Source: Gemmatimonadales bacterium
GTDB lineage: Bacteria > Gemmatimonadota > Gemmatimonadetes > Gemmatimonadales > GWC2-71-9
Assembly (NCBI GenBank): GCA_039794085.1
Contig: JBDIWC010000024.1
Location: 1 to 60,384 of the forward strand
Reading direction: 5' to 3'
Length of the DNA stretch: 60,384 bases
Shown here: positions 3,205 through 20,074 of the stretch, one piece after another
Layout of the letters: each line of letters begins with the position of its first letter
How positions within the stretch are numbered: the first letter of the stretch is position 1
Position numbers and translations under genes: made by a program
The notes under the pieces: model-generated
Databases searched by the model: none
The model's input: the letters and a program-made list of their open reading frames with translations, nothing else
What the model was told of the DNA's origin: nothing

Positions 3205-3378
3205 CCTACCGCCTACCGCCTATCGCCCACCGCCTGATTTTCCCCTCACCCCCGGCCCCTCTCCGAAGTTCGAAGTTCGAAGTTCGAAGTGTGAAGTGAA
3301 AGTGTGAAGTGTGAAGGCGGGGGCCACCCTGGGGTGTCGCCCCCCCCTACTCCCTACTCCCTATTCCCTACTCCCTGC
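3205..3378. repeat. Cluster of short heptamer tandem repeats (CCGCCTA)n, (GAAGTTC/GAAGTGT)n, (TCCCTAC)n
   Basis: Directly visible just downstream of the hsdM stop. Confidence 0.8.
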
Positions 3379-4876
3379 TTCTTACTTCCAGGTCGCCGAG
3401 CACATCCTCGATCTGGGCCAGCGCGGACCGCAGATCGTCGGCGATCTCCTGGGCCAGCAGATGCGGCTCGGGCAGCGTGTTCGAGTCCTCCAGGCTCTCG
3501 TCCCGGAGCCAGAAGAGGTCGAGGGAGACCTTGTCGCGCGCCAGGATCTCCTCGTACGAGTAGGACCGCCAGCGACCCTCCGGGGTCTCCGGACTCCATG
3601 TGGCGGTGCGGTTGTGGCGACTTCCGGGCCGGTAACATTCCACGAACTCGTCCAGGTCCGCGCGCACCATCCGTTTGGTCTTGAGCGTGAAGTGCTTGTT
3701 GGTCCGCAGGTCATACACCCAGACGGTCCGGGTCCACGGCTCCTTGGCTCCCGGCTTCCGGTCGAAAAAGAGCACGTTCGCCTTCACCCCCTGGGCGTAG
3801 AAGATCCCGGTCGGGAGCCGGAGCAGGGTGTGGACCTCGCACTCCTTGAGCAGGTTCCGCCGCACCGTCTCCCCCGCCCCTCCCTCGAACAGCACGTTGT
3901 CCGGCACCACGACGGCGGCTCGGCCCTGCACCGCGAGGAGCGACTTCACGTGCTGCACGAAGTTGAGCTGCTTGTTGGACGTCGTGGTCCAGAAATCGGG
4001 ACGGTTGTAGGTGAGGGTCTGGCGGTCGGTGTCCCCCTCCTCGTTCACGATGGTGATGGAGGATTTCTTGCCGAAGGGGGGATTGGTGACCACCACGTCG
4101 GCGTGGGAGGAGGGCTCGTCCCGCAGGGCGTCGTCGGTGCGGATCGGGGGCTCCTGGTGGTCCGCGCCGTCGGGGCCAATGCCGTGCAGGTAGAGGTTCA
4201 TCCCGCAGAGACGGGCGACGTTGGGCACCAGCTCGGTGCCGCGCAGGGCCTCGAAGCGGAGGTGGCGCTTCTGGTCGCGGTCCAGCTCGGCGTGGTTCTT
4301 GACGTACTCGTGCGCCGCGAGGAGAAAGCCGCCGGTGCCGCAGGCGGGGTCGGTGATGATCTCGCCGGGCTGGGGCCGGACGCACTCCACGATCGCGTCG
4401 ATCACGGCGCGCGGGGTGAAGTACTGTCCCGCGCCTCCCTTCACGTCCTGCGCGTTCCGTTCGAGGAGCCCCTCGTAGGCGTCGCCCTTCACATCGGCCG
4501 ACATCGCCGACCAGTTCTCCTTCCCGATAAGTTCCACCACGAGCTGGCGGAGCTTGGCGGGGTCCTGGATCTTGTTCTGCGCCTTCTCGAAGATGAGGCC
4601 GAGCATCCCGCCCTGGAGGCCGAGCTCGCGGAGGGTGTCGCGGTAGTGCTGCTCGAGCTCGACTCCCTCCATCTGGGGGGCGGCGAGATCGGCCCAGCGG
4701 TGGCCCTCGGGGATCGGCTGTGGCTCGCCGGTGAGCCGGGCCCGCTCGTCCGCCATCTTGAGGAAGAGGAGGAAGGTGAGCTGCTCCAGGTAGTCCTGGT
4801 AGGAGAGCCCGTCGTCGCGGAGGACGTGGCAGTAGGACCAGAGCTTCTGGACGATGCGGTTGGCGGCGTCGCTCAT
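3368..4876 (-). CDS. hsdM: Type I R-M N6-adenine methyltransferase subunit
   Basis: GQYFTPR, motif I DPACGTGGFL, motif IV NPPF, TSNKQLNFVQH, LRLPTGIFYAQGVKANVLFF. Confidence 0.97.
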   Translation of the reverse strand: MSDAANRIVQKLWSYCHVLRDDGLSYQDYLEQLTFLLFLKMADERARLTGEPQPIPEGHRWADLAAPQMEGVELEQHYRDTLRELGLQGGMLGLIFEKAQNKIQDPAKLRQLVVELIGKENWSAMSADVKGDAYEGLLERNAQDVKGGAGQYFTPRAVIDAIVECVRPQPGEIITDPACGTGGFLLAAHEYVKNHAELDRDQKRHLRFEALRGTELVPNVARLCGMNLYLHGIGPDGADHQEPPIRTDDALRDEPSSHADVVVTNPPFGKKSSITIVNEEGDTDRQTLTYNRPDFWTTTSNKQLNFVQHVKSLLAVQGRAAVVVPDNVLFEGGAGETVRRNLLKECEVHTLLRLPTGIFYAQGVKANVLFFDRKPGAKEPWTRTVWVYDLRTNKHFTLKTKRMVRADLDEFVECYRPGSRHNRTATWSPETPEGRWRSYSYEEILARDKVSLDLFWLRDESLEDSNTLPEPHLLAQEIADDLRSALAQIEDVLGDLEVRSRE

Positions 4877-4895
4877 CCGGTAAGCGCCTCATCTG

Positions 4896-5297
4896 TCATC
4901 GTGATCTCCTCCGCTTCCCCTTCGGACTCTTCGCAGCCGTGGGACTGCGACGACGCTGCGCCGCCACGGGTTGTTCTTCCACTACGGAAGCGAGGGCCGC
5001 TTCGACCCAGGCGTTCAGGCTCAGCCCCGATGCTTCGGCTACCCGTGCCGCAGCACGATGGAGTTCCGGGGTTGTGCGGACCAGAAACTCGCCCCGGTAC
5101 GGCCGTTCAGGATCTTTCCCGGCCTTGGCGCAGAGTTCCAGGTAGTCCTCAACCGACTCCGCCATCTCCCGGCGCAGCTCGTCCAGCGAACGACCCTGAA
5201 AGGTCACCACATCCTGCAGTCCCAGCACCCGGCCATGGAACGCATCGATGGAGGGGTCGAACTCGACCGCTCCGATATATCCCTTGTATTCCATCAT
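4896..5297 (-). CDS. hicB: HicB antitoxin
   Basis: MEYKGYIGAVEFD...FHGRVLG...DVVTFQG...PERPYRGEFLVR...LH...SLNAWV (HicB fold plus RHH). Confidence 0.92.
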   Translation of the reverse strand: MMEYKGYIGAVEFDPSIDAFHGRVLGLQDVVTFQGRSLDELRREMAESVEDYLELCAKAGKDPERPYRGEFLVRTTPELHRAAARVAEASGLSLNAWVEAALASVVEEQPVAAQRRRSPTAAKSPKGKRRRSR

Positions 5298-5548
5298 GGT
5301 TTGACTCCCGCGTTTTCCAGGAACCGTCGTACGTCTTCGAGCGTCCCCTTGCCGGTGACCCGCTCGGGGTGGGGCCCGTGGAACGTCGCCACCCGCTCGC
5401 CAAGCCGGAACCGGACCCGAGATCCGCGACCCTGCGAGACCTCCCCACCCAGCGCCTTGATCAGGGCCTCGATTCGGGACCAGCGGACATCCGAGCGGGT
5501 CGGACGTTCGAGGATCTCGTGGAGCGTCCTCCGCTGAGCCGCGTTCAT
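5294..5548 (-). CDS. hicA: HicA mRNA interferase toxin
   Basis: WSRIEALIKALG...GRGSRVRF...FHGPHP...VRRFLENAGVKP; overlaps hicB by 4 nt; likely start ATG 5548. Confidence 0.9.
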   Translation of the reverse strand: MNAAQRRTLHEILERPTRSDVRWSRIEALIKALGGEVSQGRGSRVRFRLGERVATFHGPHPERVTGKGTLEDVRRFLENAGVKP

Positions 5549-5553
5549 GTCAA

Positions 5554-5583
5554 ATGATATCACGAAATGCTATCACGATGCAA
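5554..5583 (-). promoter_or_regulatory. Putative hicAB promoter with two operator half-sites
   Basis: Minus strand TTGCAT-N18-TATCAT ends 5 nt before the ATG (leaderless-like); it overlaps the repeated quasi-palindromes TGATAGCA and TGATATCA, 13 bp apart. Confidence 0.55.
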
Positions 5584-5721
5584 GGATGTGCCACATCAGT
5601 CGGTGGGGTGGGACGAGAGGAGGGAGGATTCCCCTGCCGGTCGAGGTCGGTCCCATGGTACGTAACCCCAACATCCACAGCGGCTTATGGGAGTCAGTGT
5701 GTCAAGGTAACAGGTTTTACC

Positions 5722-5889
5722 TTATCGGCCCGCGTCACGCAGCATGCAGTCGGCCTTGGCAAGAACAGCGTCCAGGGACCCGCCCTTTCCCTCCCCGATC
5801 TCGCGGTTCCCCTGGGCCAGGAGCCGAAGGATCTGCCGCTCCCGTTCCCCCTGTTCGAAGGCCTCGACGCTGAGCATGACGTCTGCGGC
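5722..5889 (-). pseudogene. C-terminal remnant of a Phd/YefM antitoxin
   Basis: AADVMLSVEAFEQGERERQILRLLAQGNREIGEGKGGSLDAVLAKADCML*; no N-terminal DNA-binding part and no partner toxin. Confidence 0.6.
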
Positions 5890-6081
5890 TCATCCGGTGA
5901 GGGTCACCGAACGCGGCTCCTCAACTCGTGTGGACGCGTCGAGAACTTCGATCGCAATCAGGTTTCCCTGGTCATCGTAGTCGAGGATGACACCGGGCTT
6001 GTCCTCATCGCTCTCGGCGACCGGCGCGTCCCGCAGTACGACCGTCAGAATGTCGGTGGCCACGTCGTAATTCACCTTCAT
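5890..6081 (-). CDS. DUF2283 family protein (orphan antitoxin-like)
   Basis: MKVNYDVATDILTVVL...ESDEDKPGVILDYDDQGNLIAIEVLDAS; GGAGG RBS upstream of ATG 6081. Confidence 0.88.
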   Translation of the reverse strand: MKVNYDVATDILTVVLRDAPVAESDEDKPGVILDYDDQGNLIAIEVLDASTRVEEPRSVTLTG

Positions 6082-6131
6082 CAGATCCTCCACAGATCCA
6101 CGATACATCGGCCCCCGAACACCGATCGCTT

Positions 6132-6361
6132 TCAGGCCGCGGCAACGGGGCGGGCGTGGGCGATCTCGTGCCGGTCGATGGGCCGCACCTACTCGGCCGT
6201 GAGGGTCGTGACGGCGTAGGTGTCCCCGGCGAGGGTCACGAATTCGACCTCGTACCCGCGCCCGCCATCGTGTACCAGGACGACCGTGCCAACGTCCCCG
6301 GCCTCAGGCCGATCGGTTCCAGATCTTTCGTCAGCACGATGCGATCGAGTTCTTGAATCAT
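6132..6361 (-). pseudogene. DUF4926 family pseudogene
   Basis: MIQELDRIVLTKDLEPIGL, frameshift near 6303, then AGDVGTVVLVHDGGRGYEVEFVTLAGDTYAVTTL with an in-frame TAG, then VRPIDRHEIAHAR. Confidence 0.8.
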
Positions 6362-6430
6362 CGCGCTACCTCCGCGTACGGAAACGCAGTGACCAGTCGG
6401 GTGACCAGTCGGGGGGGATGGAGCCCTGCA

Positions 6431-6875
6431 TCACGTCCTTCCCGGCGTGCGCTTGGCCCGCCGAGCAGGGCGCCCCCCCTTGATGCCGTTCTTCCGTGCT
6501 GCCCTGGCCTTGGCCGCGCTCCGAATCTGTCCCAGAATGCGTGGCGCCCACTCCCGCAGATTCAGCGCATCGGCGATGAGGCCCGTCAGCGAGGCATGAG
6601 CATCCACCTGATCCCAGTGGAGCCCATCACCACTGGGCGAGATCGCAATATCCTGAAGCTGAGCCCTGGTCGCCTTCTCGAGTCCCGGAACTCGTTCCGG
6701 AGGAAATCCAAAGACATAGCCATTCCGAAGCTGAACCAGAACCAACGCCTGCTCACAGTCATATCTGACCGACGTGGCACGCGGTTCGACGCGGTCCGCC
6801 TCACGCGCCACACGAAGCGCGAGCTCATTCTGTCGCTCAAACTCGTTGTCGTCCATCGCTGTGGGCTTAGCCATG
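6431..6875 (-). CDS. DUF2442 family antitoxin
   Basis: LVQLRNGYVFGFPPERVPGLEKATRAQLQDIAISPSGDGLHWDQVDAHASL; basic tail AKARAARKNGIKGGRP; start probably at MAKPTAM. Confidence 0.85.
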
Positions 6876-7124
6876 AAGCCGTCTCCATTCTCCAAGCAAG
6901 CGCGACTGATGCTGCTCCACGATGCGGAGCGCCTGACGAGCATCCAGCGCACTCATGTGGTGGTTCTGCCAGAGGGAAGGTCCCTCCTCGTCGGTGCCTA
7001 GAAAAACGACCAACTCGCCGCCTCGCGTACACTCGACATGCACATGCGGAGGGCCGTGCTCTCGCGGCGGCGAGTAGACATACACGCTGAAGGCACCTTC
7101 CGCGCACGCCTTGACCATTGCCAA
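6867..7124 (-). CDS. DUF4160 family toxin
   Basis: YVYSPPREHGPPHVHV...LLGEWRRLHG; overlaps the DUF2442 gene. Confidence 0.85.
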   Translation of the reverse strand: MAMVKACAEGAFSVYVYSPPREHGPPHVHVECTRGGELVVFLGTDEEGPSLWQNHHMSALDARQALRIVEQHQSRLLGEWRRLHG

Positions 7125-7148
7125 CGATAAAACCCAGCGCTGGGTTTG

Positions 7149-8708
7149 TCAAGAATTGAGGCGCTCGGCGCGGATCCGCTCCAGGAGCGCCGAGGCCGGC
7201 TCATCCGTGGGGTCCTGATCCACGAGACGGCCTTCGAAGGCCCACTTGAGGATAGACTGACGAAGGCGATTGCACCGAGTGGTACATCGCAATGTCACCT
7301 CGCCTACGGCTTCCGCCCCGCTGAGCAACCGCTCGATTTCAGCTTGTACCCGGCCTTGCTCAGCCTTTGGAGGGAGTGGAATAAGGCAACTTTCGAGGTC
7401 ACTCTGATTGACCTTGAAGATCCCAGCCGTAGTCTTTGCCTTCACTTCGATCTGGTCGCGAACTGCTCTGGAGTTCCATATCTGTGCAAAGAACCCGGGC
7501 GCGACTCCATCACAAAGTCGGAATCGAATCATCGTATCGGGATAGGCGACTTGGTCAGGGAGTGCCCGCACGAGTCCGCCAAGCCCAACGAGTCGAATCG
7601 AACCATTGCCGCGGGAGACGAGAAAGTCACCCTCCTGAATCAAGTACGGCTCGGCCTCCTGTGCAGTCCACGCTCCGGTTTTGCGTTCTTTGACGTCGAT
7701 GAGTCCTTCCCGCAGCGATGTCAGCCGGAGCACTGGGAAGCCGGAGGAAGCCGTCTTGACCGACCTTCCGTTCGTAAGTGGCTCCGCGAGAAGCTGATCC
7801 GCCGTCACCCAGCACCAGCCCTCCGGCAACTCGGGCAAGTCCGCCGTGTCCGGCGCGGCGGGCTGCTGGTACTTCGCCTTCCACTTGTCGTCCTTTGGGA
7901 CCTTCCCCTTCGCCGCCATCCTGGCCAGCTCGGCTTCCTCCCAGCGGCGGCGGCGCTCGGCGAGGATCCGCTCCAGGAGCACCGACGCGGGCTCGTAGGT
8001 AGACGCGGCGTCCCGCCGCGTCAGGGGTGGGACTTCGGGAATCTCGCTTGCGGAGGAAAGTTCAATGAAGCGGCGGGACGTCGCACGCGCCAGCTCCGCC
8101 TCGGTCGGCACCAGACGCCCCTCGACCGCGGCCTTGAGCACCGAGGCGCGATACCGCTTCAGGTTACGCTGCACCCGCTCCAGCGTGGCCACGGCGTCAT
8201 CCAGCCGGGTGAAGTAGGACTCAATGGCCTCGACGATGCGGTGCTGCTCCCCCATGGGCGGGAGCGGCAGCTGATGGCGTCGAACATCGTGCGGGCGAAT
8301 CGCAGGATATACGACTCCTTGGAGATCTTTGCATACGTCCGCGATGAATTCATTGGTACGGACGCGGTAGAAGACCCATTCTGGGACTACGCTCACGGGG
8401 CGAAGAACATCAAACCCGGTGGATGCGACCGCACCATCGAGGTCGTCGTGGACTTGAGCGACCGCGTTCAGGTTGGGGCGGGTCATGGACACAAGAACAT
8501 CCTTCGCCCGGACCCACTGCCTTGCGCGTGTGGGGGCGTCCTGGATCGTCACGAGCTTGGTTTCGCCTATTCGCTTCGTAGTGCGGTCGATCGAGCTGAT
8601 GTCGATGTACGAAACGTGATCCAGTGTGGGTGGTCCCTGCGGAACCTTCTTTACGCAAATATCGCGAAGGGAAGTAACCGTCCACGTGGGGGGGAGCGAG
8701 TCCGTCAT
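7149..8708 (-). CDS. hsdS: Type I R-M specificity subunit with two TRDs and an internal REP-like in-frame insertion
   Basis: LPPTWTVTSL / LPEGWCW TRD starts, LPLPPMGEQHRIV and IPLPPKAEQGRV conserved regions, RQSILKWAFEGRLVDQDPTDEPASALLERIRAER end. Confidence 0.95.
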   Translation of the reverse strand: MTDSLPPTWTVTSLRDICVKKVPQGPPTLDHVSYIDISSIDRTTKRIGETKLVTIQDAPTRARQWVRAKDVLVSMTRPNLNAVAQVHDDLDGAVASTGFDVLRPVSVVPEWVFYRVRTNEFIADVCKDLQGVVYPAIRPHDVRRHQLPLPPMGEQHRIVEAIESYFTRLDDAVATLERVQRNLKRYRASVLKAAVEGRLVPTEAELARATSRRFIELSSASEIPEVPPLTRRDAASTYEPASVLLERILAERRRRWEEAELARMAAKGKVPKDDKWKAKYQQPAAPDTADLPELPEGWCWVTADQLLAEPLTNGRSVKTASSGFPVLRLTSLREGLIDVKERKTGAWTAQEAEPYLIQEGDFLVSRGNGSIRLVGLGGLVRALPDQVAYPDTMIRFRLCDGVAPGFFAQIWNSRAVRDQIEVKAKTTAGIFKVNQSDLESCLIPLPPKAEQGRVQAEIERLLSGAEAVGEVTLRCTTRCNRLRQSILKWAFEGRLVDQDPTDEPASALLERIRAERLNS

Positions 8709-11575
8709 GCCGCCAGCACCCCGTTCAACTCGTCAATGATCGCCGTCAGGTCCTCTCCGAACACCTGGACCGCCCTTCCGAGTCCGCCATCCTGGGCAAA
8801 CGGCACGTTGTCGAGGTCTCCCACCGTCATCTCCACGCTCGCCGCCACATGGTCCCGCATCATCTCGAGCCAGCGGACCTGCTCCGGGGTGAACGCCCGG
8901 CCCCGGTTCCGCTGCTGCTGCATCCACTCCGCGAACCGCTCCCGCACCTGCTCGCCGAAGGGGACCAGTTCGTCGTCCCGGTGGGTGGCAAAGCGCACCA
9001 GGGAGACGATGTCGGTCAGCAGCCGCTGCGCCGAGGCGCCCCGGACCTTGTGCCCGTTCAGCGTTTCGTAGGCGCGCCAGAGCCGCTCCGGGGTCCACGC
9101 CCGCGGCGGCGCCTGGATCGCCGCGGCGAGCTGCTTGATGTCCTGGAAGGAAAGCCGCCGGGAATACGGCTGCGCGTAGAAGAACTGGAGCGCCTCGATC
9201 TCGTCCTTGTTCTCTTCGATGAAGCGTTCGAAGTCCGCCACGAGCGAGCGGGCCTTTTCCCGCGCCTCCACGCTCGCCCCCGCCTCCAGCACCTCGTCCA
9301 CCGACACCTCGTCGATCACCTGCTCCATCTCCCGCTTCAGATCCTGCAGCAGGGTCCGCAGGGCAGGCCTCGTCGCCAGCGGCTCCGTGGCCCGTTTGAG
9401 CAATGACTCGGCGGCCTGATTCCTCTGCGCCTCGGTCGGCTCCTGTCCCGGGGGCACGTCGAATGCACTTCTTGCCTCGGTGACCTGCACGTCGGGGTCG
9501 AGCCCGTCCACGATCTTCCGGCAGATGCCGGGAAGCCCGACCCCGCCCGACGCTTCCACCACCCGCGCGTGTTCCTCCGGGCCGCACCGCTTCGAGAGGC
9601 GCGCCAGGCGGCTCGCCAGGGAGGAGAGGAACTCCCGGTCGGTGCCCCCCATCGCCACGTGCTCCAGCAGCGCCTTGAGGCTCACCGTGCGCTTCCGGTC
9701 GAGCGGCTGGGTGTCGGCCAGCGCGGTCTCGGTCATCCCGACACAGTCCACGATCACGAAGTGGGTCTTGGCCACGGCATCCGCCCCGCTCACGGCGCGC
9801 AGGTCGTTGGGGTCGATGATGCGGACCCCCCGCCCCTTCATCTGTTCAAAGAGGACCCGGCTCTTGACCGCGCGCATGAACATCACGATCTCGATCGGCT
9901 TGATGTCGGTGCCGGTGGCCACCATGTCCACGGTGACGGCGATGCGCGGCTCGTACTGGTTGCGGAAGGCCTGGATCAGGTCCCGCGGGTTCGCGGCGGT
10001 GACCTTGTAGGTGATCTTCTGGCAAAAGGTATTCCCCCGCCCGAACTCGTCCCGCACGACCTCCACGATGTCCTCGGCGTGGCTGTCGTCCTTGGCGAAG
10101 ATGAGGGTCTTGGGGACCTCGGTGCGGCCGGGGAAGATGTCGACCGGGAGCCGGTCGCGGAAGGTGCGGATGATGGTGCGGATCTGGTCCTTCGCCACCA
10201 CTCGGCGGTCGAGCTCGTTGGGGTCGTAGTTCAGCGGCTCGTCGGGCACTTCCCAGCGGAGGGCCCGGGTCTCCTTGTCGCGGTAGCCGAGCATGGTGTC
10301 GGGGTGGGCCTCGACGGTGGAACCCTGGGTTGTGATCTTGGTGCGGATGGTGTAGACCTCGAAGTCCACGTTCACGCCGTCGGCCACGGCGCGTTCGTGG
10401 TCGTACTCCATCACCAGGTTCTTGTTGAAAAAGCCGAGCGTCTGCTTGGAGGGGGTGGCGGTGAGACCGATGAGGAAGGCGTCGAAGTACTCCACCACCT
10501 GGCGCCAGAGGGTATAGATCGATCGGTGCACCTCGTCGATCACCACCACGTCGAAGTACTCAGGCGGGTAGGCGGCGTTGTACACCACCGGAAGGGGCTC
10601 CTTTATGGCGGCGCCGCTGGTCTCGAACTGGGAACCCTCCTCCTCCGCCGGGTCGTAATCCGGGTCCCCCTTGAGCATCGAGTAGACCCGCTGGATGGTG
10701 GAGATGACCACCCGGCTCGAGTCCATGATGGTATTGGAGGTGAGGCGCTGGACGTTGTAGAGTTCGGTGAACTTCCGGTTGACGTCGGGCGCCCGGTAGC
10801 CCTGGAACTCCTTTTCCGCCTGCTCGCCCAGGTTGCTTCGGTCCACCAGGAAGAGCACCCGCCGGGCGCCGCCGTACTTGATGAGACGGTAGATGGCGGT
10901 GATCGCCGCGATGGTCTTGCCCGACCCGGTGGCCATCTGGATCAGGGCGCGGGGGCGGTTCCGCCGGAGGGAATCCTCCAGGTTGGTGACCGCCTCGACC
11001 TGGTTGGGGTAGAGCCCGCCCGGTACCAGGGGCGGCAGGGTCCTGATCCGGGCACGGAAGGAGGAGGGGCGGGTGTCGTCCGCCGCGGTGTGGAGCCCTC
11101 CCTCGGCGTGCAGGCGCCTCACCCAGGCGTCGAGGGTCTCGGCCCCGATCCACTCGGCGAGGGTCTCGGGCTGGTGGATGTGGGGGAGGTTCCGGGAGAT
11201 CTCGCGGGTCTTCGGGTCGGGGTCGAGGCCGTTGATGAAGCGGGTCTCGATGCCGGTGGAGAGGTAGAGGAAAGGGAGAGGGTTGACCGGCGGGTTGAGA
11301 CCAGCGGGGAGCCCAGTGGCGTACTTGTCGGCCTGGAGTTCGACGTTGCCGAGCGCCACCCCGGCCGGTTTCGCCTCGAGAACGCCGACCGCCTTTCCGT
11401 CGACGAAGAGGAGGTAATCGGCAAAGCCGTGGCCGGGGGCCATTTTGAACTCCCGGACCGCGACGCCGAGTGCGGCGGAGAGGTTGATCCCGTCGCGGTT
11501 CTGGATGACCCAGCCCGCGGCGACGAGGGCGGCGTCGATATCGACGCGGGCCCGTTGCTCGGGGGTCAGGTTCAT
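8705..11575 (-). CDS. hsdR: Type I R-M restriction subunit (EcoEI-like)
   Basis: ADYLL...VLEAK nuclease motif, MATGSGKT Walker A, DEVHR, GLTATP, QMKGRG; likely start MNLTPEQRAR at 11575, since the upstream extension is repeat-derived. Confidence 0.96.
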   Translation of the reverse strand: MNLTPEQRARVDIDAALVAAGWVIQNRDGINLSAALGVAVREFKMAPGHGFADYLLFVDGKAVGVLEAKPAGVALGNVELQADKYATGLPAGLNPPVNPLPFLYLSTGIETRFINGLDPDPKTREISRNLPHIHQPETLAEWIGAETLDAWVRRLHAEGGLHTAADDTRPSSFRARIRTLPPLVPGGLYPNQVEAVTNLEDSLRRNRPRALIQMATGSGKTIAAITAIYRLIKYGGARRVLFLVDRSNLGEQAEKEFQGYRAPDVNRKFTELYNVQRLTSNTIMDSSRVVISTIQRVYSMLKGDPDYDPAEEEGSQFETSGAAIKEPLPVVYNAAYPPEYFDVVVIDEVHRSIYTLWRQVVEYFDAFLIGLTATPSKQTLGFFNKNLVMEYDHERAVADGVNVDFEVYTIRTKITTQGSTVEAHPDTMLGYRDKETRALRWEVPDEPLNYDPNELDRRVVAKDQIRTIIRTFRDRLPVDIFPGRTEVPKTLIFAKDDSHAEDIVEVVRDEFGRGNTFCQKITYKVTAANPRDLIQAFRNQYEPRIAVTVDMVATGTDIKPIEIVMFMRAVKSRVLFEQMKGRGVRIIDPNDLRAVSGADAVAKTHFVIVDCVGMTETALADTQPLDRKRTVSLKALLEHVAMGGTDREFLSSLASRLARLSKRCGPEEHARVVEASGGVGLPGICRKIVDGLDPDVQVTEARSAFDVPPGQEPTEAQRNQAAESLLKRATEPLATRPALRTLLQDLKREMEQVIDEVSVDEVLEAGASVEAREKARSLVADFERFIEENKDEIEALQFFYAQPYSRRLSFQDIKQLAAAIQAPPRAWTPERLWRAYETLNGHKVRGASAQRLLTDIVSLVRFATHRDDELVPFGEQVRERFAEWMQQQRNRGRAFTPEQVRWLEMMRDHVAASVEMTVGDLDNVPFAQDGGLGRAVQVFGEDLTAIIDELNGVLAA

Positions 11576-11625
11576 GCCGGGAGGCGGGCGAGGGTGATCA
11601 GGAGGGCTCCGGGAGTCGGTGTTTC

Positions 11626-11803
11626 GTAGGGGCGACACATGCGTCGCCCGGGTTTGCGGTACGGGGTCGGGAGACCACGAGGAGTGGTCATTCCGGCGAA
11701 GGACATTGCAGGGGCCGTCATTCCCGCGAAGGACATTGCAAGGGCCTTGATTCCGGTGGAAGACCTCCCAAGGGCCGTCATTCCGGCGAAAGCCGGAATC
11801 CAT
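11626..11803. repeat. GTAG-type REP palindrome plus four 30-bp tandem units derived from the GTCATTCCGGCGAAAGCCGGAATCCA REP
   Basis: GTAGGGGCGACACATGCGTCGCCC at 11626; units start at 11687, 11717, 11747 and 11777. Confidence 0.8.
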
Positions 11804-11922
11804 GTTCGGTTGTCAGTGACCCAACTCGGTGTCCGGCAAAGGTCACCGAGGTTTCGTTCCGACAAGTGGCCATCTATACGTCCCGCGAAGGTTAGCAATC
11901 GCCACCCGATTGGGGAAGGCCG

Positions 11923-13647
11923 TCAGAGCTCCACCAATACTCCTCGCGTCGAAATATCCAGGATGTAGTGAATCGGGAGCACTGTACAGTACTCTCTACC
12001 AGGCACGCGTTCCATCGTCTCTTCATATGCCGATTCGATGACAATGCCAATGACTCTCCCTCGGCTGTCAATAACGGGCCCTCCGCTCAGACCACCAGCG
12101 GAGGCAACCGAGATCTGAAGCAGTTGTAGGGTTTGCCGGTAATTGTTTCGAACGGATTCTACAGTTCCGCTGTAGATGCCGAGGTCAGGATGGCGATCAG
12201 GAATTGAAGCGTATCCGAGTACCGCGATGGGTTCTCCAGCTTCGGGGATCCTGCGATCGGTCTGGATGCTCGTGAGTCCATGATCGATCGGAACCAAGGC
12301 ACCGTCGATTACATGACGGCCCATGCTGTGGAAACGGGCCGCCTTAATCTCTCTATTCCCAGTTCCGCGAACGAGGTGCACACAACCATCGAGGTTATGT
12401 GCCGCGGTGACTATTGTCCCACCGTCGATCGCGAATGCCGATCCGAGCCTCGTGCTCCTTGTTGTCGAGGTCACCTCCAGGAGAGCGATCGCGGTCCGTC
12501 TCTTTCCCAAAAGATTGCTCCACCGATCGGAGCTGACCCACGGAGTGCCGCCGGGGTACTGACCTGGGGTTGGTGCTGCACGGATGAGAGTGGGCTCGCA
12601 TTCGTGCAAAGTGTTCCTGAGTGTGCAGTATACTGGATCGGTTCGTCCGCGAATGAAGCCAATGTACTCAATGCGCCCTCGCAGGACAGCACCAAAGTGC
12701 ATTTCTGCATTCTCGGTACCCGAGAAAGGGTGTTGATCTCGTTCACAGAAGCTCATTGCGGCAAGGGTCTTACCGAAACGCCGCCACGCATGCAACAGGC
12801 CTCGTACTTCACGCACGTAAGCCCATGGTACATTCACAAACTTGTTCACCACCAACCCGGTGACTTCTTGGTGTTGTCCGCGGAACTGCAGCCGTGTCTT
12901 ACCCGTATTGATCCGAAAACCATTTTGGGATATGACAGAGCCCAGCGTGTCACCAACTACTACATTCGAGCCAATCCATCCACCAGTTGCGCTTGCGATA
13001 GATGGCGGGAACTGGTCCCGATTGCATGACAGCGTTATGTCGTCGCAGTAACGGGTGTAGGTGAGACCCAGTTTTTTTGCAATCGCCATCAGTTGACCAT
13101 CAAGGCGAGCGCAAATGATATTTGAGACGAATGGAGACGTAGGTGCACCTTGGGGCAACACGCCGTTTGCCATTGTGCACACTTGTGCGAGTGCGGTGGC
13201 AGCATATTGGGGGAGTTCGAAGGGTCGAGCCATGAACGCACCACGCACCCGTCCCAGGTGAATGCTCGGGAAGAAGTCTTCAAGATCCACGTTGAGGATC
13301 CACCGGCGCTGCACATGTCGGGCAGCGTTCGTTCGGATCGAGTGCTTCCAGCGGTACCCATGCACAGCGGGTTTCGGGGTGTAGACCAATTGAAGCACGT
13401 AATTGAGCTTTTCCTGCAGGATTCGAAGGGGCTTGGGAGGCACGGCGATCTGCCTTCCGCCACCCCTTTTCTTCGGGACTGTGAAGATGCTGTACTTGGC
13501 GCGTTCTTGTCGAGTCCCCAAGAGGCGCTTGAAATATGGGCGCGGGATCTCAAGAAGATCAGCAACATCAGCACCTGTCGTCATCCCCTGAAACAACGAG
13601 ATAATGTCGCTGTCAGATCGGGAAAGCCGGGGAAGGAGATCTGTCAC
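11923..13647 (-). CDS. Retron-type reverse transcriptase fused to a C-terminal trypsin-like serine protease (type XI-like retron)
   Basis: RT: KKRGGGRQI, NAARH (retron region X NAxxH), DLEDFFPSI, LPQGAPTSP, YTRYCDD, QEVTGLVVN (region Y VTG). Protease: TAAH, D in VIDGALV, GLSGGPV. Likely start GTG 13647, because the longer ORF from 13719 overlaps the predicted ncRNA. Confidence 0.9.
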   Translation of the reverse strand: MTDLLPRLSRSDSDIISLFQGMTTGADVADLLEIPRPYFKRLLGTRQERAKYSIFTVPKKRGGGRQIAVPPKPLRILQEKLNYVLQLVYTPKPAVHGYRWKHSIRTNAARHVQRRWILNVDLEDFFPSIHLGRVRGAFMARPFELPQYAATALAQVCTMANGVLPQGAPTSPFVSNIICARLDGQLMAIAKKLGLTYTRYCDDITLSCNRDQFPPSIASATGGWIGSNVVVGDTLGSVISQNGFRINTGKTRLQFRGQHQEVTGLVVNKFVNVPWAYVREVRGLLHAWRRFGKTLAAMSFCERDQHPFSGTENAEMHFGAVLRGRIEYIGFIRGRTDPVYCTLRNTLHECEPTLIRAAPTPGQYPGGTPWVSSDRWSNLLGKRRTAIALLEVTSTTRSTRLGSAFAIDGGTIVTAAHNLDGCVHLVRGTGNREIKAARFHSMGRHVIDGALVPIDHGLTSIQTDRRIPEAGEPIAVLGYASIPDRHPDLGIYSGTVESVRNNYRQTLQLLQISVASAGGLSGGPVIDSRGRVIGIVIESAYEETMERVPGREYCTVLPIHYILDISTRGVLVEL

Positions 13648-13666
13648 GTGGGAGTATGGAAGGGGT

Positions 13667-13805
13667 GGATAGGCTAGCCCGAGGTCATTCTGTGCTTCCG
13701 CCACGCCAGGTGAAACCACATGCCCCGGCGCAGGAGTGAGGTCAGACTTTCTCGTTGCCTGTCGCGTATTCGCGACATGAGTAAATGTGCTGGACTAGCC
13801 CATCC
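13667..13805 (-). ncRNA. Candidate retron msr-msd ncRNA
   Basis: Minus-strand arms GGAUGGGCUAGUCC (13805-13792) and GGGCUAGCCUAUCC (13680-13667) pair over 14 positions with two G-U wobbles. AGC follows the 5' arm, then a perfect hairpin UGUCGCG-AAUA-CGCGACA and an imperfect GC-rich hairpin. Immediately 5' of the RT. Confidence 0.7.
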
Positions 13806-14131
13806 CCCATTGGAAACGTGCTGTGTTGTCCTTGCTGTCGCAAGCCTTGAGCGGCCGCCTTGGACTTCCGGCCCCACAACCACTCCCTCCAGCACCGGCC
13901 TCCCTAGTCACCCACCAGGCGGAACGGCACGGGCGCCGTCGCGTCCTGCAGCGCCATCAGGATGTCCATCTCCCCCTGGGAGCATCGGCCCTCGTTGGGG
14001 TTGATCGCCCTCGGGGCAGGAATAGCAAACCCATTGCAGCGCCGATTCGATACGCCGCCCGCCATTTACGGCGAACAGCATTCATCAAACCAATTATGTT
14101 CACCTGATGGCATAGTTCTTCTGTAAAAGGA

Positions 14132-16078
14132 TCATCCCTGGTTCCAGTCCTCCGGAACCAATGCGGGAGGCTTTGTCCAGGGCAGTTCGACCAACGCCTC
14201 CTGAAACCACTGCTCCCGAAGATTCGCATGCTCGGTGACGATCAACTGGAAGCCGGGGACGTCCTCCTGGGTGAACTTCAGCAACAGCTCGAACAGTCGG
14301 CGAACCGCATTGAGGTCGGCGTCTGCCTCGGTCCTTTGCACCGAGCCATCAGCATCCTTGTAGACCTGCTCGGACGGGAAGTAGACCTGGGTCGGCTGGT
14401 CAATCAGGAGAAAGCGCGGTATCGGGCGGTTGTTCTGGGCCGCGAACAGATGCAGGGCGAGCAGTGCCGACAGGTGGTAGGCCAGATGGTTCTCGCCGCC
14501 CCCAGTCCGGCCCATCGGGACCGGACGTTCGGGTCGATCGAAAATGACCGTCAACTGCGGCAGGTTCAGTCGCGCAGGGTAGGCCCCGAACTCGGCGCCG
14601 AACATCTGGACGTACCGCGTCACCTGCGCGGAAATGTTGTTGAGGATCGAGACGAGACGGTCGTTGCTATCGTCGGCGCCGATCTGGCCCTCAAGCTGCT
14701 GCACCTTGTTCGTGAGACGGCGATTCTCCGCTTCCAGTCTGGCAAGATCCTCGTTCGGGAGAAGGGTCTCCAGGAACAGGCTGATGCGGCCGACAACGCG
14801 CGCGGCCGCGTTGTTGCGGGTGCCCATTTGGGCGAGGACCTCGTTGGCCGAGATCGCCGCGGATAGCTCAACCTCTTTCTGCTTGATGGTTGCTGCGATC
14901 CCGTCCGCCTTGTCGGCCAGTTCGATCAGGTAGGCTTCGAGTTTCGGGCGCTGACCGGTAGCGATGCGCAATTCCTTGTCGAGCGATTCCAGTTCGTTGA
15001 GCAGGACGGCGCCGACCGGGGATTCCAGCGCCAGGTTCCGCTCGCTGAACGGCCATTGCCACTCACCGCTTTCGGGGTTCTTCGGCAGAGCCTTGATCGA
15101 GGCCAGCCGGTCTATCTGTTCGGCTGCCTCACTTTCGTAGCCGCCCGCCCGCTTGGCGAACTGTCGCGCCGCGTCGATCCTGGTCTGGGCGTCGCGGCGA
15201 TCCTGGCGCAACTGGCTCAGTTCCTCCTCCAGAAGCGAAACCCGGCTGCCGTCGTCGTTGGGCACCGTTTCGGGCTTCCACGACAGTGCGGACCTCAATG
15301 CGTTGATGATCTCCTCGGCGTTCGGGTTCCCGTCGATGTGGCTGATGACGCTGACTGTCCTACCTTCAGAGTAGAGACCGATGGCCTGCTCGTGTGACGT
15401 GTCGACAGCGTGGCGCGCCTGCTCCAGCTGCTTGCTGTTGATCCTCAGATCCCGCTGCGCCGTGCGAAGCCGGGATTCCAGTTCGTAGCGGTCGTTGGAC
15501 GAGACGCCGAGGAGGATCGGCAGAGTATCGCGGATTGCCTGTGGCTGGAATTGCTCGTTCTGACGGTAGAACAGCTGATCCTTGTTGGCGACCAACCCCT
15601 GCTTCTGGAACAGATAGTAGAACGTGTGCTTGACGTTCGCGTCGTAGCTGTCGCGGCTGTGTGCAAACGCGACATCGGTGCGGTTCTCGGGAATGCCGAG
15701 CAGACGCGACAGCAGTTCGACGATAGCGGTGTCGTCCGTGTTGACCGCAAGCTCCTCGAACGAAGGCGCCTCCAGCTGACTTCCCCGCCGCAGCATCGCG
15801 GTACTGCAACTGGCGCCACCAGCGGTCGGGGTCGGCTTGGCGACCAGCACCTGCTCGTTCTCGAACTGGAAGATCACGGCGAACCAGGCCACCTTGTCGC
15901 GGATGACGCCTTCGGGAACGTTGAACGAGGAACGCCCCATGCAGTATTCGATGATCTCGGAGAGAGCGGACTTGCCGGTGGAAGACCGGCCGGTGATGAC
16001 GTTGAGCCCGTCCACTTTGAACCGAAGATCCCGGCGCTGGCCGTGGTGGCTGTAGATGTTGATAGATCTGATCTTCAT
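14132..16078 (-). CDS. lmuB: SMC-like ABC ATPase, DUF3732 family (Lamassu LmuB / ABC-3C ATPase)
   Basis: Walker A ITGRSSTGKS, long coiled coil, TGGGENHLAYHL, Walker B LLIDQPTQVYF, FQLIVTEHA. Confidence 0.88.
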   Translation of the reverse strand: MKIRSINIYSHHGQRRDLRFKVDGLNVITGRSSTGKSALSEIIEYCMGRSSFNVPEGVIRDKVAWFAVIFQFENEQVLVAKPTPTAGGASCSTAMLRRGSQLEAPSFEELAVNTDDTAIVELLSRLLGIPENRTDVAFAHSRDSYDANVKHTFYYLFQKQGLVANKDQLFYRQNEQFQPQAIRDTLPILLGVSSNDRYELESRLRTAQRDLRINSKQLEQARHAVDTSHEQAIGLYSEGRTVSVISHIDGNPNAEEIINALRSALSWKPETVPNDDGSRVSLLEEELSQLRQDRRDAQTRIDAARQFAKRAGGYESEAAEQIDRLASIKALPKNPESGEWQWPFSERNLALESPVGAVLLNELESLDKELRIATGQRPKLEAYLIELADKADGIAATIKQKEVELSAAISANEVLAQMGTRNNAAARVVGRISLFLETLLPNEDLARLEAENRRLTNKVQQLEGQIGADDSNDRLVSILNNISAQVTRYVQMFGAEFGAYPARLNLPQLTVIFDRPERPVPMGRTGGGENHLAYHLSALLALHLFAAQNNRPIPRFLLIDQPTQVYFPSEQVYKDADGSVQRTEADADLNAVRRLFELLLKFTQEDVPGFQLIVTEHANLREQWFQEALVELPWTKPPALVPEDWNQG

Positions 16079-16563
16079 GGACGAATCCCGAAAGTCGTGT
16101 AAACGGTCGCCCGGTCGGCGATGCGTGCGAATTCCCTTCCGACGATGCGTGCCACTTTCTGACAGGAGACGGTCTCGTTGGTTCCGCTGAAGGTCTTGCG
16201 CACTTTGCCGGGCACCGTCTGAATGCGCCCGTCGTCCGCGACGGCGATGCAGCCCTTTTCCATCAGCAGGCCGAACCCCTCGAAGGCATAGGGGAGCATC
16301 TGCGTGACCCGGTCGGCGAAGCCCACCATGACCTGCTGGTTTTTCTCCGTGGTCTTGAGCAGGTAGCTACGCGGACTGCCGGCGATCACCTCGCGCGAAT
16401 CTTTGTGCAGGCACAAGGGCAGCACGAGCAGCGACAGCGAGAAGGGCATGCCGCGGGCGTCTTCTTCCTCGTAGCCATGCAGGGCGCGGAACAGGACCAG
16501 ACCGCAGAAGGCAGGGTTGAACAGGTTCCGAATCTCGAAGGGGCGCTGGTTCCATCGCTTCAC
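16075..16563 (-). CDS. lmuC: ABC-3C middle component (LmuC-like)
   Basis: W..RPFEIRNLFNPAFCG...LLVLPLCLH pattern; overlaps both neighbours by 4 nt. Confidence 0.8.
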   Translation of the reverse strand: MKRWNQRPFEIRNLFNPAFCGLVLFRALHGYEEEDARGMPFSLSLLVLPLCLHKDSREVIAGSPRSYLLKTTEKNQQVMVGFADRVTQMLPYAFEGFGLLMEKGCIAVADDGRIQTVPGKVRKTFSGTNETVSCQKVARIVGREFARIADRATVYTTFGIRP

Positions 16564-17783
16564 GGAGCCACCCCCAGCACCTCGACGAGGCGGTCGAGGA
16601 ACCTGGGATGCCAGTAGACCCTAGGTTCGGGCTTGGCATCGGCCAAGATGTGGAAACTCCCGCGAAGGACATAGGCCTCAGTCACCCGTGCGCGGATGCG
16701 CAGGGATTCTAACTTGCGGGTCTCGAACTCCATCCAGGTGAAGAGGGTCGCGCCGGCTTCGCGAAGCGCGTCTTCGGCGCTGTCATCCCTTAACTTCTCG
16801 AAGGCGAAATCCTTGTAGCGGTTCCACTCGTCGGCGAGACGATCTTCGTACTCCTCCACCTCTCCCGACACCAGCAGGCTCTCGCGCGCCCAGGCCGATC
16901 GCTGCTCGAACGCCCGGTAGTAGTCCAGGATCGCGCTCCTGATCCGGCTGGAGGAAATCCCGATCTCGCGGAGTTGCACCACGAACAGGCGCGGATCGGC
17001 CTCGGTGTCGATCTCGTCGGCGGGCACCTTTCCGAGGAAGGTGATGGGTAAGTTGTCCGTCTTGTATTCCTCGGCGATGTTGGAGAGTTTGTCCGAGACC
17101 TCGTAACCAAAGATTCCTTCCGCCCTCGTGCCGGTCAACTGCTTGATCACAGCATCAGTCCACCAGCCTTCCAGCCGCTCGAAGACGAACTCGCGGTGCT
17201 CGCGCCGGATGCTTCGCATATGCTTGTCCCTGATGATCGCCGGGATGTCGGTGATGCGCGGGCTGCCGTCGAGGATCAAGATGCGTTCGAGGAAATCCTG
17301 TTTTTCGAGATCGCTCAGTTCGTTGAACGCCGTTGCGATCGGCGCGATCTGTTTTGACGTTGACTTGGCGAGCGCGGCATTGGCTATCTCAGTCAGTGTT
17401 GCGACATCGCCGGAAGCGACGGGCTGGTCGGGCAGGAGACGGGCGAGGAACGAGTTGGTCGATACCGTGCCGGTGGTGAACAGAAAGAACCGCAGGTTCG
17501 ATGTGGCCCGGCCATCGCGTTTGTATCGCGCCAGCCAGATGTTGGCGGACTTCCAGAAGTCAGTCGACAGGTCGGTCATCCTGTCGCCGACTGCCTTGTG
17601 CTTGAGCGAGGCCAGGGACTTGCCACCGTCCCCGTCGATAAAATCGAGATCGTCGTCCTTTTCCAGGAAGACGGTGCTGTCCTCCGGCAACTGCAACAGA
17701 TGGAGCAGGGCGAGACGCGCCTGGTAGATGTATCCCAAGCCTTGGTCGCCGGCGGAGTATTTGTCGGTGATCTGGGCTGTCAT
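16560..17783 (-). CDS. lmuA: Lamassu LmuA-like effector: Cap4-like nuclease-fold N-terminus plus ABC-3C C-terminal domain
   Basis: A..QGLGYIYQ...EKDDD...SLKHK...DFWKS..IW N-terminus; C-terminal AILDYYRAFEQRSAW...RGSFHILAD...VYWHPRF. Confidence 0.78.
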   Translation of the reverse strand: MTAQITDKYSAGDQGLGYIYQARLALLHLLQLPEDSTVFLEKDDDLDFIDGDGGKSLASLKHKAVGDRMTDLSTDFWKSANIWLARYKRDGRATSNLRFFLFTTGTVSTNSFLARLLPDQPVASGDVATLTEIANAALAKSTSKQIAPIATAFNELSDLEKQDFLERILILDGSPRITDIPAIIRDKHMRSIRREHREFVFERLEGWWTDAVIKQLTGTRAEGIFGYEVSDKLSNIAEEYKTDNLPITFLGKVPADEIDTEADPRLFVVQLREIGISSSRIRSAILDYYRAFEQRSAWARESLLVSGEVEEYEDRLADEWNRYKDFAFEKLRDDSAEDALREAGATLFTWMEFETRKLESLRIRARVTEAYVLRGSFHILADAKPEPRVYWHPRFLDRLVEVLGVAP

Positions 17784-18269
17784 CGATCCAATCGGCACCT
17801 AAGGTTACTTGCTGTTGCCAGTGGTCTCACAGTTGCTCAGATCGAATATCGGAAAACGTCGTCCATCACAGACTCGACCCATACGGAGTCGCCACATCTG
17901 CCTTCCTGCGGCATAACTTCTCTGTTCCATCGTTTCCGCACTTCGCTGCCGCTGCCCGCAGGATAACTCCAGAACGCTGCGAGCCCCCTCCCGTGACTAT
18001 CACGCCGGCAGTGCCTGCCGGCACCGGACCGGAAGCCCGCTCCAGGAGCCGGATCGCCCGACCTTCTCCTTGCGTGCACCGGCCATGCTGCCGCCAACCG
18101 CCGCCTCGTCGCCGCCCACTATCGCGTCTGGATCCTCGATTCCCCCGTCGCGGCACATGCGCGCGCGGGTTGAATCCGCTTCGGTCATCTCAGCGCTGTC
18201 GCAAGGTACCGCCCGCAACCCAATCCCGGAAGGTCCTGTCAGCATCGAGGCCCAACTGGGTTCCTTGAT

Positions 18270-18725: not shown

Positions 18726-18821
18726 TGCGTACGACACGACTTCTGCTGGCGATACCCGCCCAACCGTCGAGTCCACCGGCCCGCGGAGGTAGGGCGGGTC
18801 CGGTATAGCAAGAGGTTAGAC
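18726..18821 (-). other. Degenerate integron attC-like site closing the FRG cassette
   Basis: R'' GTCTAAC contains the FRG stop codon; inner inverted repeats CTCTTGCT/AGCAGAAG and ACCCGCCC/GGGCGGGT; R' is degenerate (GTACGCA). Confidence 0.5.
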
Positions 18822-19844
18822 CTTATCGCCGCGCTCAGTGCGGACGAGCGAAAAGCCAACACCGCGATAGAACTCGCTACTCACAGTCTGCCACTCGCTC
18901 TCAGCGGAGACGAGATCGGCCGTTGAGTATGTGACGGACGATCTGTTCGAGAGAGCGCACTTGAGTTGGTCTTTCAATATCTGTCGTAAACCTCTTGCCT
19001 CATCCACCGGCACTCCGGACGGGTCACTGGCCATATCAGATTCGGCCTCCTCGACGTAGGAAACGGGAATCTCGTCCGCGATGCACATGGCCGCGGCCAG
19101 GCGCGCGGTTGGGTCTGGTGGTAGCAGGTCGGGACCGCCGCCAAAGCGCTTGAGCACCTCTTCGCCGACTTTAGGATCATGCTCGAATCGGAAGGCCTGA
19201 AGCATTGGGGCTTGGAGAAAGTCTTCTCCCAGGCGAAGCTCCACAGTCCACGCCCACTGCCGTGATGGTCTGGGGAATGGCTGATAGGCAATTGGAGAGG
19301 CTCGCTCATCGACAGCTTCACGGTGGAGGCGATACATCACTCCTTCACCCTCACGCATGGGTTCCCACTGGTCTGTGGCATGGATGTAGCGACAAGTTGC
19401 AAAAAAGGCAGAGACCTCGAACGATTCAGACGCATCCATGTAGCCGGTGGGTACGCCGTAGTGCTGCGCGATCGCGGTCGTGTCGACCGCGATTCGCTCC
19501 TTTGCGGCCCACTTCATCATTGGGTGCTTGGCCACCTCGTCCGTAAACCAGTTGTTGAGAGCGAGTGCGCGTAGCAATCGAGCTCGGTCCAAGGGGTCCA
19601 GGTCGCGGACAAGGTAAGTGTTCTCACGGAAGCGTCGGCAAAGCGACGGCCAGCATGGATCGTGGTGGCGGTTCTGGCCGCGATAGAGGAAGCGAGGTCG
19701 ATGCGCGCGCTCCAGCTTTACCCTCCCGGTGGACCCGTCTCCCTCATGGACCATCAGCCAGCGCGATCTTCCCTCAGAACGGGCCTCGCGCTCTGCCCGG
19801 TCTTGATCGGACATCTGCAGGAGAGCGTATGCAGGTAGTTTCAT
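18816..19844 (-). CDS. FRG domain protein
   Basis: FLYRGQ...PSL.R...IAQHYGVPTGYMDASESFEVSAFFAT; ATG 19844 sits 3 nt after the attC R' box. Confidence 0.88.
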   Translation of the reverse strand: MKLPAYALLQMSDQDRAEREARSEGRSRWLMVHEGDGSTGRVKLERAHRPRFLYRGQNRHHDPCWPSLCRRFRENTYLVRDLDPLDRARLLRALALNNWFTDEVAKHPMMKWAAKERIAVDTTAIAQHYGVPTGYMDASESFEVSAFFATCRYIHATDQWEPMREGEGVMYRLHREAVDERASPIAYQPFPRPSRQWAWTVELRLGEDFLQAPMLQAFRFEHDPKVGEEVLKRFGGGPDLLPPDPTARLAAAMCIADEIPVSYVEEAESDMASDPSGVPVDEARGLRQILKDQLKCALSNRSSVTYSTADLVSAESEWQTVSSEFYRGVGFSLVRTERGDKV

Positions 19845-19847
19845 GTG

Positions 19848-19909
19848 GCCTGACGCCATGCCGATCAGCGGCCGGCCGAAGGCCGGCCCGCGGTATCGGC
19901 TTGTTGGGC
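19848..19909 (-). other. Integron attC-like site (62 bp)
   Basis: GCCCAAC-AAGCCGATACCGCGGGCCGGCCTTCGGCCGGCCGCTGATCGGCATGGC-GTCAGGC: RYYYAAC box, palindromic core and near-GTTRRRY box. Confidence 0.7.
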
Positions 19910-20074
19910 GGCGTTCTTGTCGTCCTCGGCAAGGCACTTTGCCAGGTCAGTCGAGGCGGCCTTCTCCGAGATGTACCTAACGCGCTCTTCGGGTGTCATG
20001 CGCTCCATCTCCTGGCTCAGCCTGTCGCGGAGCTCACGCATGAGTTTCACTGCGTCAAACGTCTTCGTTTTCAT
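19865..20074 (-). CDS. Small antitoxin-like partner of the PIN protein
   Basis: MKTKTFDAVKLMRELRDRLSQEMERMTPEERVRYI; stop codon lies inside the attC-like site. Confidence 0.7.
   Translation of the reverse strand: MKTKTFDAVKLMRELRDRLSQEMERMTPEERVRYISEKAASTDLAKCLAEDDKNAAQQADTAGRPSAGR

Follow-up and report, generated by a model that had tools for sequence, protein, structure and literature searches.

The window analysed here covers positions 1 to 60,384 of contig JBDIWC010000024.1 (assembly GCA_039794085.1) of a Gemmatimonadales bacterium (GWC2-71-9). Its minus strand carries a gene for a reverse transcriptase (RT) fused to a trypsin-like protease, with a predicted msr-msd RNA upstream of it, and according to Pfam and PADLOC this retron sits between Lamassu and a type I restriction-modification (RM) operon. 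The longest frame of the fusion gene (13719-11923) encodes 598 aa, and all residue numbers below are those of this frame. Translation probably begins at GTG 13647 (V25), giving a gene at 11923..13647 and a protein of 574 aa (Pfam, PADLOC, alignment, AlphaFold2), since the N-termini of homologues begin there, residues 1-25 have pLDDT <50 and the longer frame overlaps the 3′ arm of the RNA stem. No Shine-Dalgarno sequence is visible upstream of this GTG and a promoter scan returned no sigma-70-like promoter on the minus strand. The GC content of the gene (55.3%) is below that of hsdR (67.4%), lmuABC (60.6-62.2%) and the window (65.7%), as had been remarked in an earlier annotation made from the letters alone (hereafter the sequence-only reading).

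Two domains, both on the minus strand, make up the protein. The RT core (Pfam RVT_1, 12883..13479, aa 81-279, E 6e-19) holds NAARH (aa131, 13329-13315), matching the NAxxH of region X, the RT motif QGAPTSP (aa190) and YCDD (aa224, 13050-13039) as the catalytic YxDD, while the VTG of region Y (aa286, 12864-12856) lies 3′ of the RVT_1 core; the retron RT features NAxxH, VTG and YxDD are thus all present, and the four hallmarks listed by the sequence-only reading were recovered. The chymotrypsin-fold protease domain (Trypsin_2, 12043..12444, aa 426-559, E 2e-15, resembling DegS/HtrA folds) supplies the triad His from TAAH (aa438; H441 at 12399-12397), the Asp as D472 (12306-12304) and the Ser from GLSGGP (aa543, 12093-12076; S545 at 12087-12085). 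A homologue search gave 2005 matches at E≤0.001 among 8000 scored, of which the best 120 were listed, and we aligned our protein with 41 of the best-scoring protease-fused proteins among those 120: N131, H135, Y224, D226, D227 and V286-T287-G288 are invariant in 42/42 sequences, and so are H441, D472 and S545, which upholds the apparently complete triad noted earlier. The AlphaFold2 model has a mean pLDDT of 89.9 and is low at residues 1-25 and 390-393 only; Foldseek ranks Eco2 first, then other retron RTs and then DegS/HtrA proteases.

The Lamassu/ABC-3C operon (14132-17798, minus strand; Pfam, PADLOC) encodes LmuA with CTD7 (412 aa), LmuC/MC3 and LmuB/DUF3732; the retron RNA follows it 324 bp downstream, in the same orientation. 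The type I RM genes, an EcoEI-like hsdR, hsdS and hsdM (3368-11803, minus strand; Pfam, PADLOC), lie 3′ of the retron and are interrupted by a DUF4160/DUF2442 pair (6431-7124) and by a pair labelled HicAB-like from reading the sequence alone (4896-5563). Between retron and hsdR, a 30-bp unit is repeated in tandem three to four times at 11690-11850, where there is also a palindromic element. Parts of 11767-11816 turn up on numerous further contigs from this sample, in the manner of a REP/RPE-type repeat; the repeat inflates the apparent N-terminus of hsdR, whose start is likely near 11576. Two more likely defence-island genes encode an FRG-domain protein (18816-19937, minus strand), which PADLOC matches weakly to PDC-S15, and a Schlafen-AlbA_2/HATPase/HTH protein (20885-22243, minus strand).

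With such neighbours, the protease might not kill directly but activate a separate effector by cleavage, be it an adjacent defence protein or an antitoxin, or might release itself from the RT through a flexible linker. Trypsin-like domains of other defence systems cleave a partner nuclease, according to the accessible text of 10.1101/2025.09.03.673762, both Lamassu and the HicAB-like pair are nearby, and pLDDT is low in the linker around aa 380-393. We nevertheless consider this explanation improbable. None of the 154 flanking ORFs belongs to a family that recurs in more than 2 of 35 RT-protease loci, and no neighbour gene of the window recurs at the others, many of the 35 contigs being short. 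Given the lack of a conserved flanking family, the functional unit would be the RNA plus one gene, in line with the single-protein system lacking a substrate gene that had been proposed before.

Retron type and effector swaps

The locus is a type XI retron by the definition of Mestre et al. 2020 (PMC7736814; accessible text), namely a clade-8 RT fused to a trypsin-like protease, as domain matches, structure models and phylogeny agree. The two best PADLOC models are both RT-Protease_XI (aa 43-570, E 1e-133), followed, over the RT part only, by RT-TIR XII (E 2e-113, stopping at aa 377) and then RT-Toprim I-C; the best 25 matches listed are all retron RT models. In a FastTree phylogeny of 275 RT domains (292 before dropping rows >90% identical), midpoint-rooted and free of any labelled group II, DGR or Abi outgroup, the RT groups with the I-C (Eco2-like), XI and XII RTs and belongs to a subclade of protease fusions, with a support for the clade-8 placement of 0.77 inside and 0.93 for the outgroup. 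A search of PDB sequences ranks Eco2 (E 1e-50) before Eco1 (1e-29) and a group II intron RT (7e-8). Both parts of the definition are therefore represented, the clade-8 RT and the trypsin-like protease with its Trypsin_2 match, invariant triad and DegS-like fold. The type XI assignment of the sequence-only reading is confirmed by the RT tree and PADLOC run it had called for, and grouping with non-retron RTs, its own counter-test, was not seen in the PDB search or among the PADLOC matches listed. The RT-protease fusion itself is already known as a named type.

YCDD had also been singled out, and we rejected it as a special feature. It occurs in 22 of the 120 matches listed (118 with a parsable YxDD), and 19 of these 22 proteins form a single subclade (FastTree support 0.98), other type XI loci having YVDD, YSDD or YGDD. 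The YCDD subclade to which our protein belongs is only ~30-36% identical to the type XI loci that were fetched.

Several other effectors are attached to related RTs. Five proteins (P0048, P0050-P0053), nested inside the RT-protease subclade, join a clade-8 retron RT to an adenylate/guanylate cyclase domain of class III whose catalytic motifs look intact, and could possibly be retrons that make a cyclic-nucleotide signal; such a fusion is absent from the Mestre type table as surveyed, and we found no paper on it. Another five (P0072, P0082, P0088, P0089 and P0100), branching among a second RT-protease group, are clade-8 retron RTs with a fused GGDEF-family domain (E to 5e-40) and no canonical GGDEF signature by pattern search. 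Further swaps on the same RT chassis (P0078, P0093, P0108, P0120; loci L168, L172, L175, L176, L166, L173, L174, L177 and L178) comprise Schlafen/AlbA_2 and Mrr_cat fusions as well as many C-terminal extensions of 170-290 aa that match no Pfam family; effector-swap loci show the same RNA layout as described below, and the junction G is absent in 4 of 13 of them. A split arrangement is found in L169:1946-4144 (Ga0126311_10006000), where a stand-alone Trypsin_2 ORF lies directly 5′ of the RNA and the RT is short and effector-less.

The predicted RNA and its branch junction

Beside the RT gene, a 17-nt inverted repeat (13808-13792 / 13680-13664) whose arms are 111 nt apart delimits a predicted msr-msd RNA of ~145 nt (13664..13808, minus strand), with 13792..13808 as the 5′ arm and 13664..13680 as the 3′ arm of its a1/a2 stem. 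The region, picked after the repeat was seen, folds with a z of -3.94, and none of 200 shuffles was as stable. The structured non-coding region announced by the sequence-only reading is thus borne out, with the correction that its 3′ arm lies inside the longest ORF.

Comparison with RT-protease loci from viral, metagenome and plasmid collections, whose proteins are mostly 27-36% identical, supports the earlier prediction of an msr-msd RNA by a recurrent repeat, a covarying hairpin and a covariance model; the closest homologues (P0002-P0047, ~36-60% identity) are protein sequences only and stand outside this comparison. An upstream inverted repeat beat 30/30 shuffles in 15 of 30 RT-protease loci, this one counted, and was matched by ≤2/30 shuffles in 23 of the 30, seven being weaker. 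Most of the other loci fetched have an Eco2-like RNA layout upstream of the gene. The msr hairpin (13760..13777, minus strand; folding, covariation), homologous to the Eco2 stem-loop, is 92% paired across loci, with compensatory changes in 5 of 6 pairs, compared to 30-54% for slid controls; none of 500 shuffles reached this pairing, in a test that kinship inflates. The a1/a2 arms cannot be aligned at the sequence level, so RNAalifold on a MAFFT alignment recovers the hairpin alone. We built a covariance model from 31 loci with the window left out; its sole match in the 60 kb, both strands considered, lies at 13678-13795 (minus strand) and is weak on its own (16.9 bits, E 0.37) but at the predicted place; genome-wide, this leave-one-out model did not recover the RNA at E≤1. 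In 66 other loci, model R1, likewise weak, gives only nine matches at E≤1, none of them to an Eco2-type RNA, and Rfam returns only a sub-threshold snoRNA match for the region (E 1.3).

A G stands 16-18 nt 3′ of the hairpin in 33/35 type XI and 38/38 I-C loci, and here the stop-type G13747 is at +17 after the closing C of the hairpin, as G52 is in Eco2. Applied to Eco2 itself (L038), our rule places a G 12 nt before the hairpin anchor, the stop G at +17 and a 67-nt DNA, in agreement with the G15, G52 and 67 nt given in the accessible text of PMC12916289 and PMC12405507. For the locus presented here, the same rule predicts an RT-DNA at 13692..13747 (plus strand) of 56 nt with its stop at G13747, if branched at A13782.

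We considered whether the RNA is the first for type XI and rejected this. Mestre et al. 2020 (PMC7736814) report, in the text accessible, no ncRNA found for type XI, and Toro 2026 (PMC13712802), likewise as far as accessible, models RNAs only for protease-less XI-like lineages, while the available part of Khan et al. 2024 (10.1101/2024.01.25.577267) includes some validated type XI ncRNAs and lists eight type XI retrons, five of them with RT-DNA vectors. What is new, as predicted from these sequences, is the G-less branch junction common to most type XI RNAs sampled, and the missing branch G, to which the sequence-only reading made no reference, is the more unusual feature of the locus.

The inner helix leading to the branch-equivalent junction spans 13782..13787 (minus strand), with 13787-13783 pairing with 13686-13690. 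By the helix rule the junction is A13782 opposite A13691, after a U·G wobble; by the covariance model it is U13783 opposite G13690. Neither placement gives a G on the 5′ side, so that the branching G expected directly after the a1/a2 stem is absent; the nearest unpaired G upstream, the more distant G13790, could substitute. All 38 I-C-like (Eco2-like) control RNAs have a G 9-13 nt before the hairpin anchor, which is missing in 22 of 35 protease-fused loci, the window included, and present in 13, counted over related, non-independent loci with 13 anchors set by hand. An automatic helix rule calls G·G at the inner stem end in 37/38 controls; in the 35 type XI loci it calls A·A in 21 (two of them with an inner G·G alternative), G·G in five, another pair in eight and none in one. 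Curation by eye of 33 junctions, leaving out L206 and L231, gave 21 A·A, one A·G and 11 G·G.

A bold reading of these counts, to which we give somewhat less than an even chance, is that in a majority of the sampled type XI retrons, ours among them, the 2′-OH of an adenosine would prime msDNA synthesis, and that this DNA would gate a protease acting as the sole killing effector. In that case A·A may replace the G·G mismatch at the a1/a2 stem end in several lineages, and the A-branched RNA-DNA may resemble the lariat branch of group II introns, as opposed to the G-branch described for retrons. A caveat is that A·A can take on the look of a conserved pair simply where runs of U pair with runs of A. 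Our search of the literature for non-G branching, with most subscription journals outside its reach, found no report of adenosine-branched msDNA. RTs at A-type loci retain YxDD, NxxxH and mostly VTG, and in a quick IQ-TREE phylogeny of 52 RTs (leaving out five ambiguous non-protease loci, the two unassigned L206 and L231 and one near-duplicate) the A label needs six changes, with strongly supported branches compatible with one origin. The RT column that best tracks A against G is aa232 (T/S/A in 18/18 G-type and F in 18/28 A-type RTs, C here); its score of 0.64, compared to a permutation maximum of 0.62 and obtained with no control for kinship, led us to set it aside as a determinant.

Priming could instead be canonical, from G13790 in an internal loop of the a1/a2 stem, with a DNA of ~65 nt and with A·A as a by-product of U-run/A-run pairing. 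As in Eco2, G13790 is part of an AG step that comes after the strong outer stem, a 65-nt product is close to the 67 nt of Eco2, every branch point described in the literature surveyed is a G, and a G is also present a short way upstream, by a few bases, in several A-type loci. We hold this rather unlikely: G13790 is 17 nt from the hairpin anchor, compared to 11-13 nt in 38/38 I-C RNAs, the upstream Gs of other loci occur at inconsistent offsets and are often paired, and 5 of the 33 curated loci (L049, L008, L018, L006 and L245) have no G at all from -8 to +3 of the junction.

Since the canonical branch G is missing, msDNA synthesis is not assured either. The RNA might serve as scaffold or antitoxin with no reverse transcription at rest, or DNA made upon infection might turn the protease on, as in type VI retrons, which have no constitutive msDNA according to the accessible text of 10.1101/2025.10.22.683967. 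While the branch G is absent in 22 of 35 loci, A-type loci keep the catalytic and retron motifs of the RT intact, conservation extends to the termination-type G and the a1/a2 stem, and for some type XI ncRNAs RT-DNA production served as validation (Khan et al., as far as accessible), all of which makes a retron silent at rest a poor prospect.

Finally, an RNA lacking its priming base could belong to a decaying, non-functional copy. The distribution of the gene is patchy: it was not found in 100 relatives nor when order, class and phylum were each sampled with 400 genomes (overlapping samples), the only other match there being G360/L244, which groups with I-C RTs. A scan of contig collections gave one weak locus, viral scans gave relatives of 29-43% identity or nothing, and the metagenome scan covered 4 of 64 parts. 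Even with this patchiness and no visible ribosome-binding site, decay is highly improbable, the ORF being intact with all invariant residues, the G-less junction extending across several well-supported subgroups and the four sequencing runs that contain the retron locus, all of one sample, showing no variant letters.

Proposed mechanism and related systems

The locus likely defends against phage, and with moderate confidence we favour a joint model in which a type XI retron makes a short msDNA that restrains the protease until phage factors destroy it, whereupon a host protein is cut. The RT would copy ~56 nt (13692-13747) and stop at G13747; priming would most likely be from A13782, because the junction has no G, with G13790 and U13783 as alternatives. 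The RT-msDNA complex would then oligomerise and cage the C-terminal protease domain as in Eco2, whose fused effector is caged by the msDNA until a phage nuclease sets it free (PMC12916289, accessible text); the restraint of the protease by msDNA, already proposed in the sequence-only reading, is drawn by analogy with that system. Damage to the msDNA by a phage nuclease or DNA-binding protein would release the protease to cleave one or several host proteins and so abort the infection. Eco2 as top PDB match, the invariant triad, the conserved RNA fold and the defence-island context speak for this model. Two considerations weigh against its caging step: in the work of Khan et al. the fused RTs were expressed in E. 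coli without truncation, so under this model any type XI member that failed to make DNA should have been toxic; and this RT subclade swapped effectors repeatedly, so the caging geometry of Eco2 may not carry over. The explanations weighed above overlap in part with the joint model, and priming from G13790 would alter the priming step alone.

Now that an RNA, DNA ends and a probable start codon have been predicted for it, this compact 1.9-kb unit lends itself to direct tests. If adenosine priming is true, the G-branch rule for retrons would be wrong for a whole group, which would help explain why type XI RNAs were missed by G-centred models and would change both the annotation of retron RNAs and their engineering for genome editing. 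We found no paper on the defence activity, trigger, protease activity or protease target of type XI retrons in a search that left most subscription journals outside.

Among known systems, the trypsin-MBL module of Hachiman, AVAST and Argonaute (10.1101/2025.09.03.673762, accessible text) has, as proposed for our locus, a trypsin-like protease held off by a sensor and released on infection, but requires an adjacent MBL nuclease as substrate, and no such conserved neighbour is present here. Type XII retrons (RT-TIR) share the RT clade and differ in their effector, a TIR domain, the match to their model ending at aa 377. Within type XI as defined in PMC7736814, our locus is set apart by its YCDD subclade and by A/U instead of G at the branch junction. 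The closest solved RT is that of Retron-Eco2 (Ec67), type I-C1 (PDB 9I2F, 9LM3), whose trimer, three-way junction and trigger our locus may or may not share. The Eco2 effector is a TOPRIM RNase and ours a protease, and where Eco2 has G15 opposite G and a 67-nt DNA, we predict A·A or U·G and ~56 nt. Like our retron, Eco2 is a single RT-effector fusion, and both have the same RNA layout, with the same hairpin and a termination G at +17.
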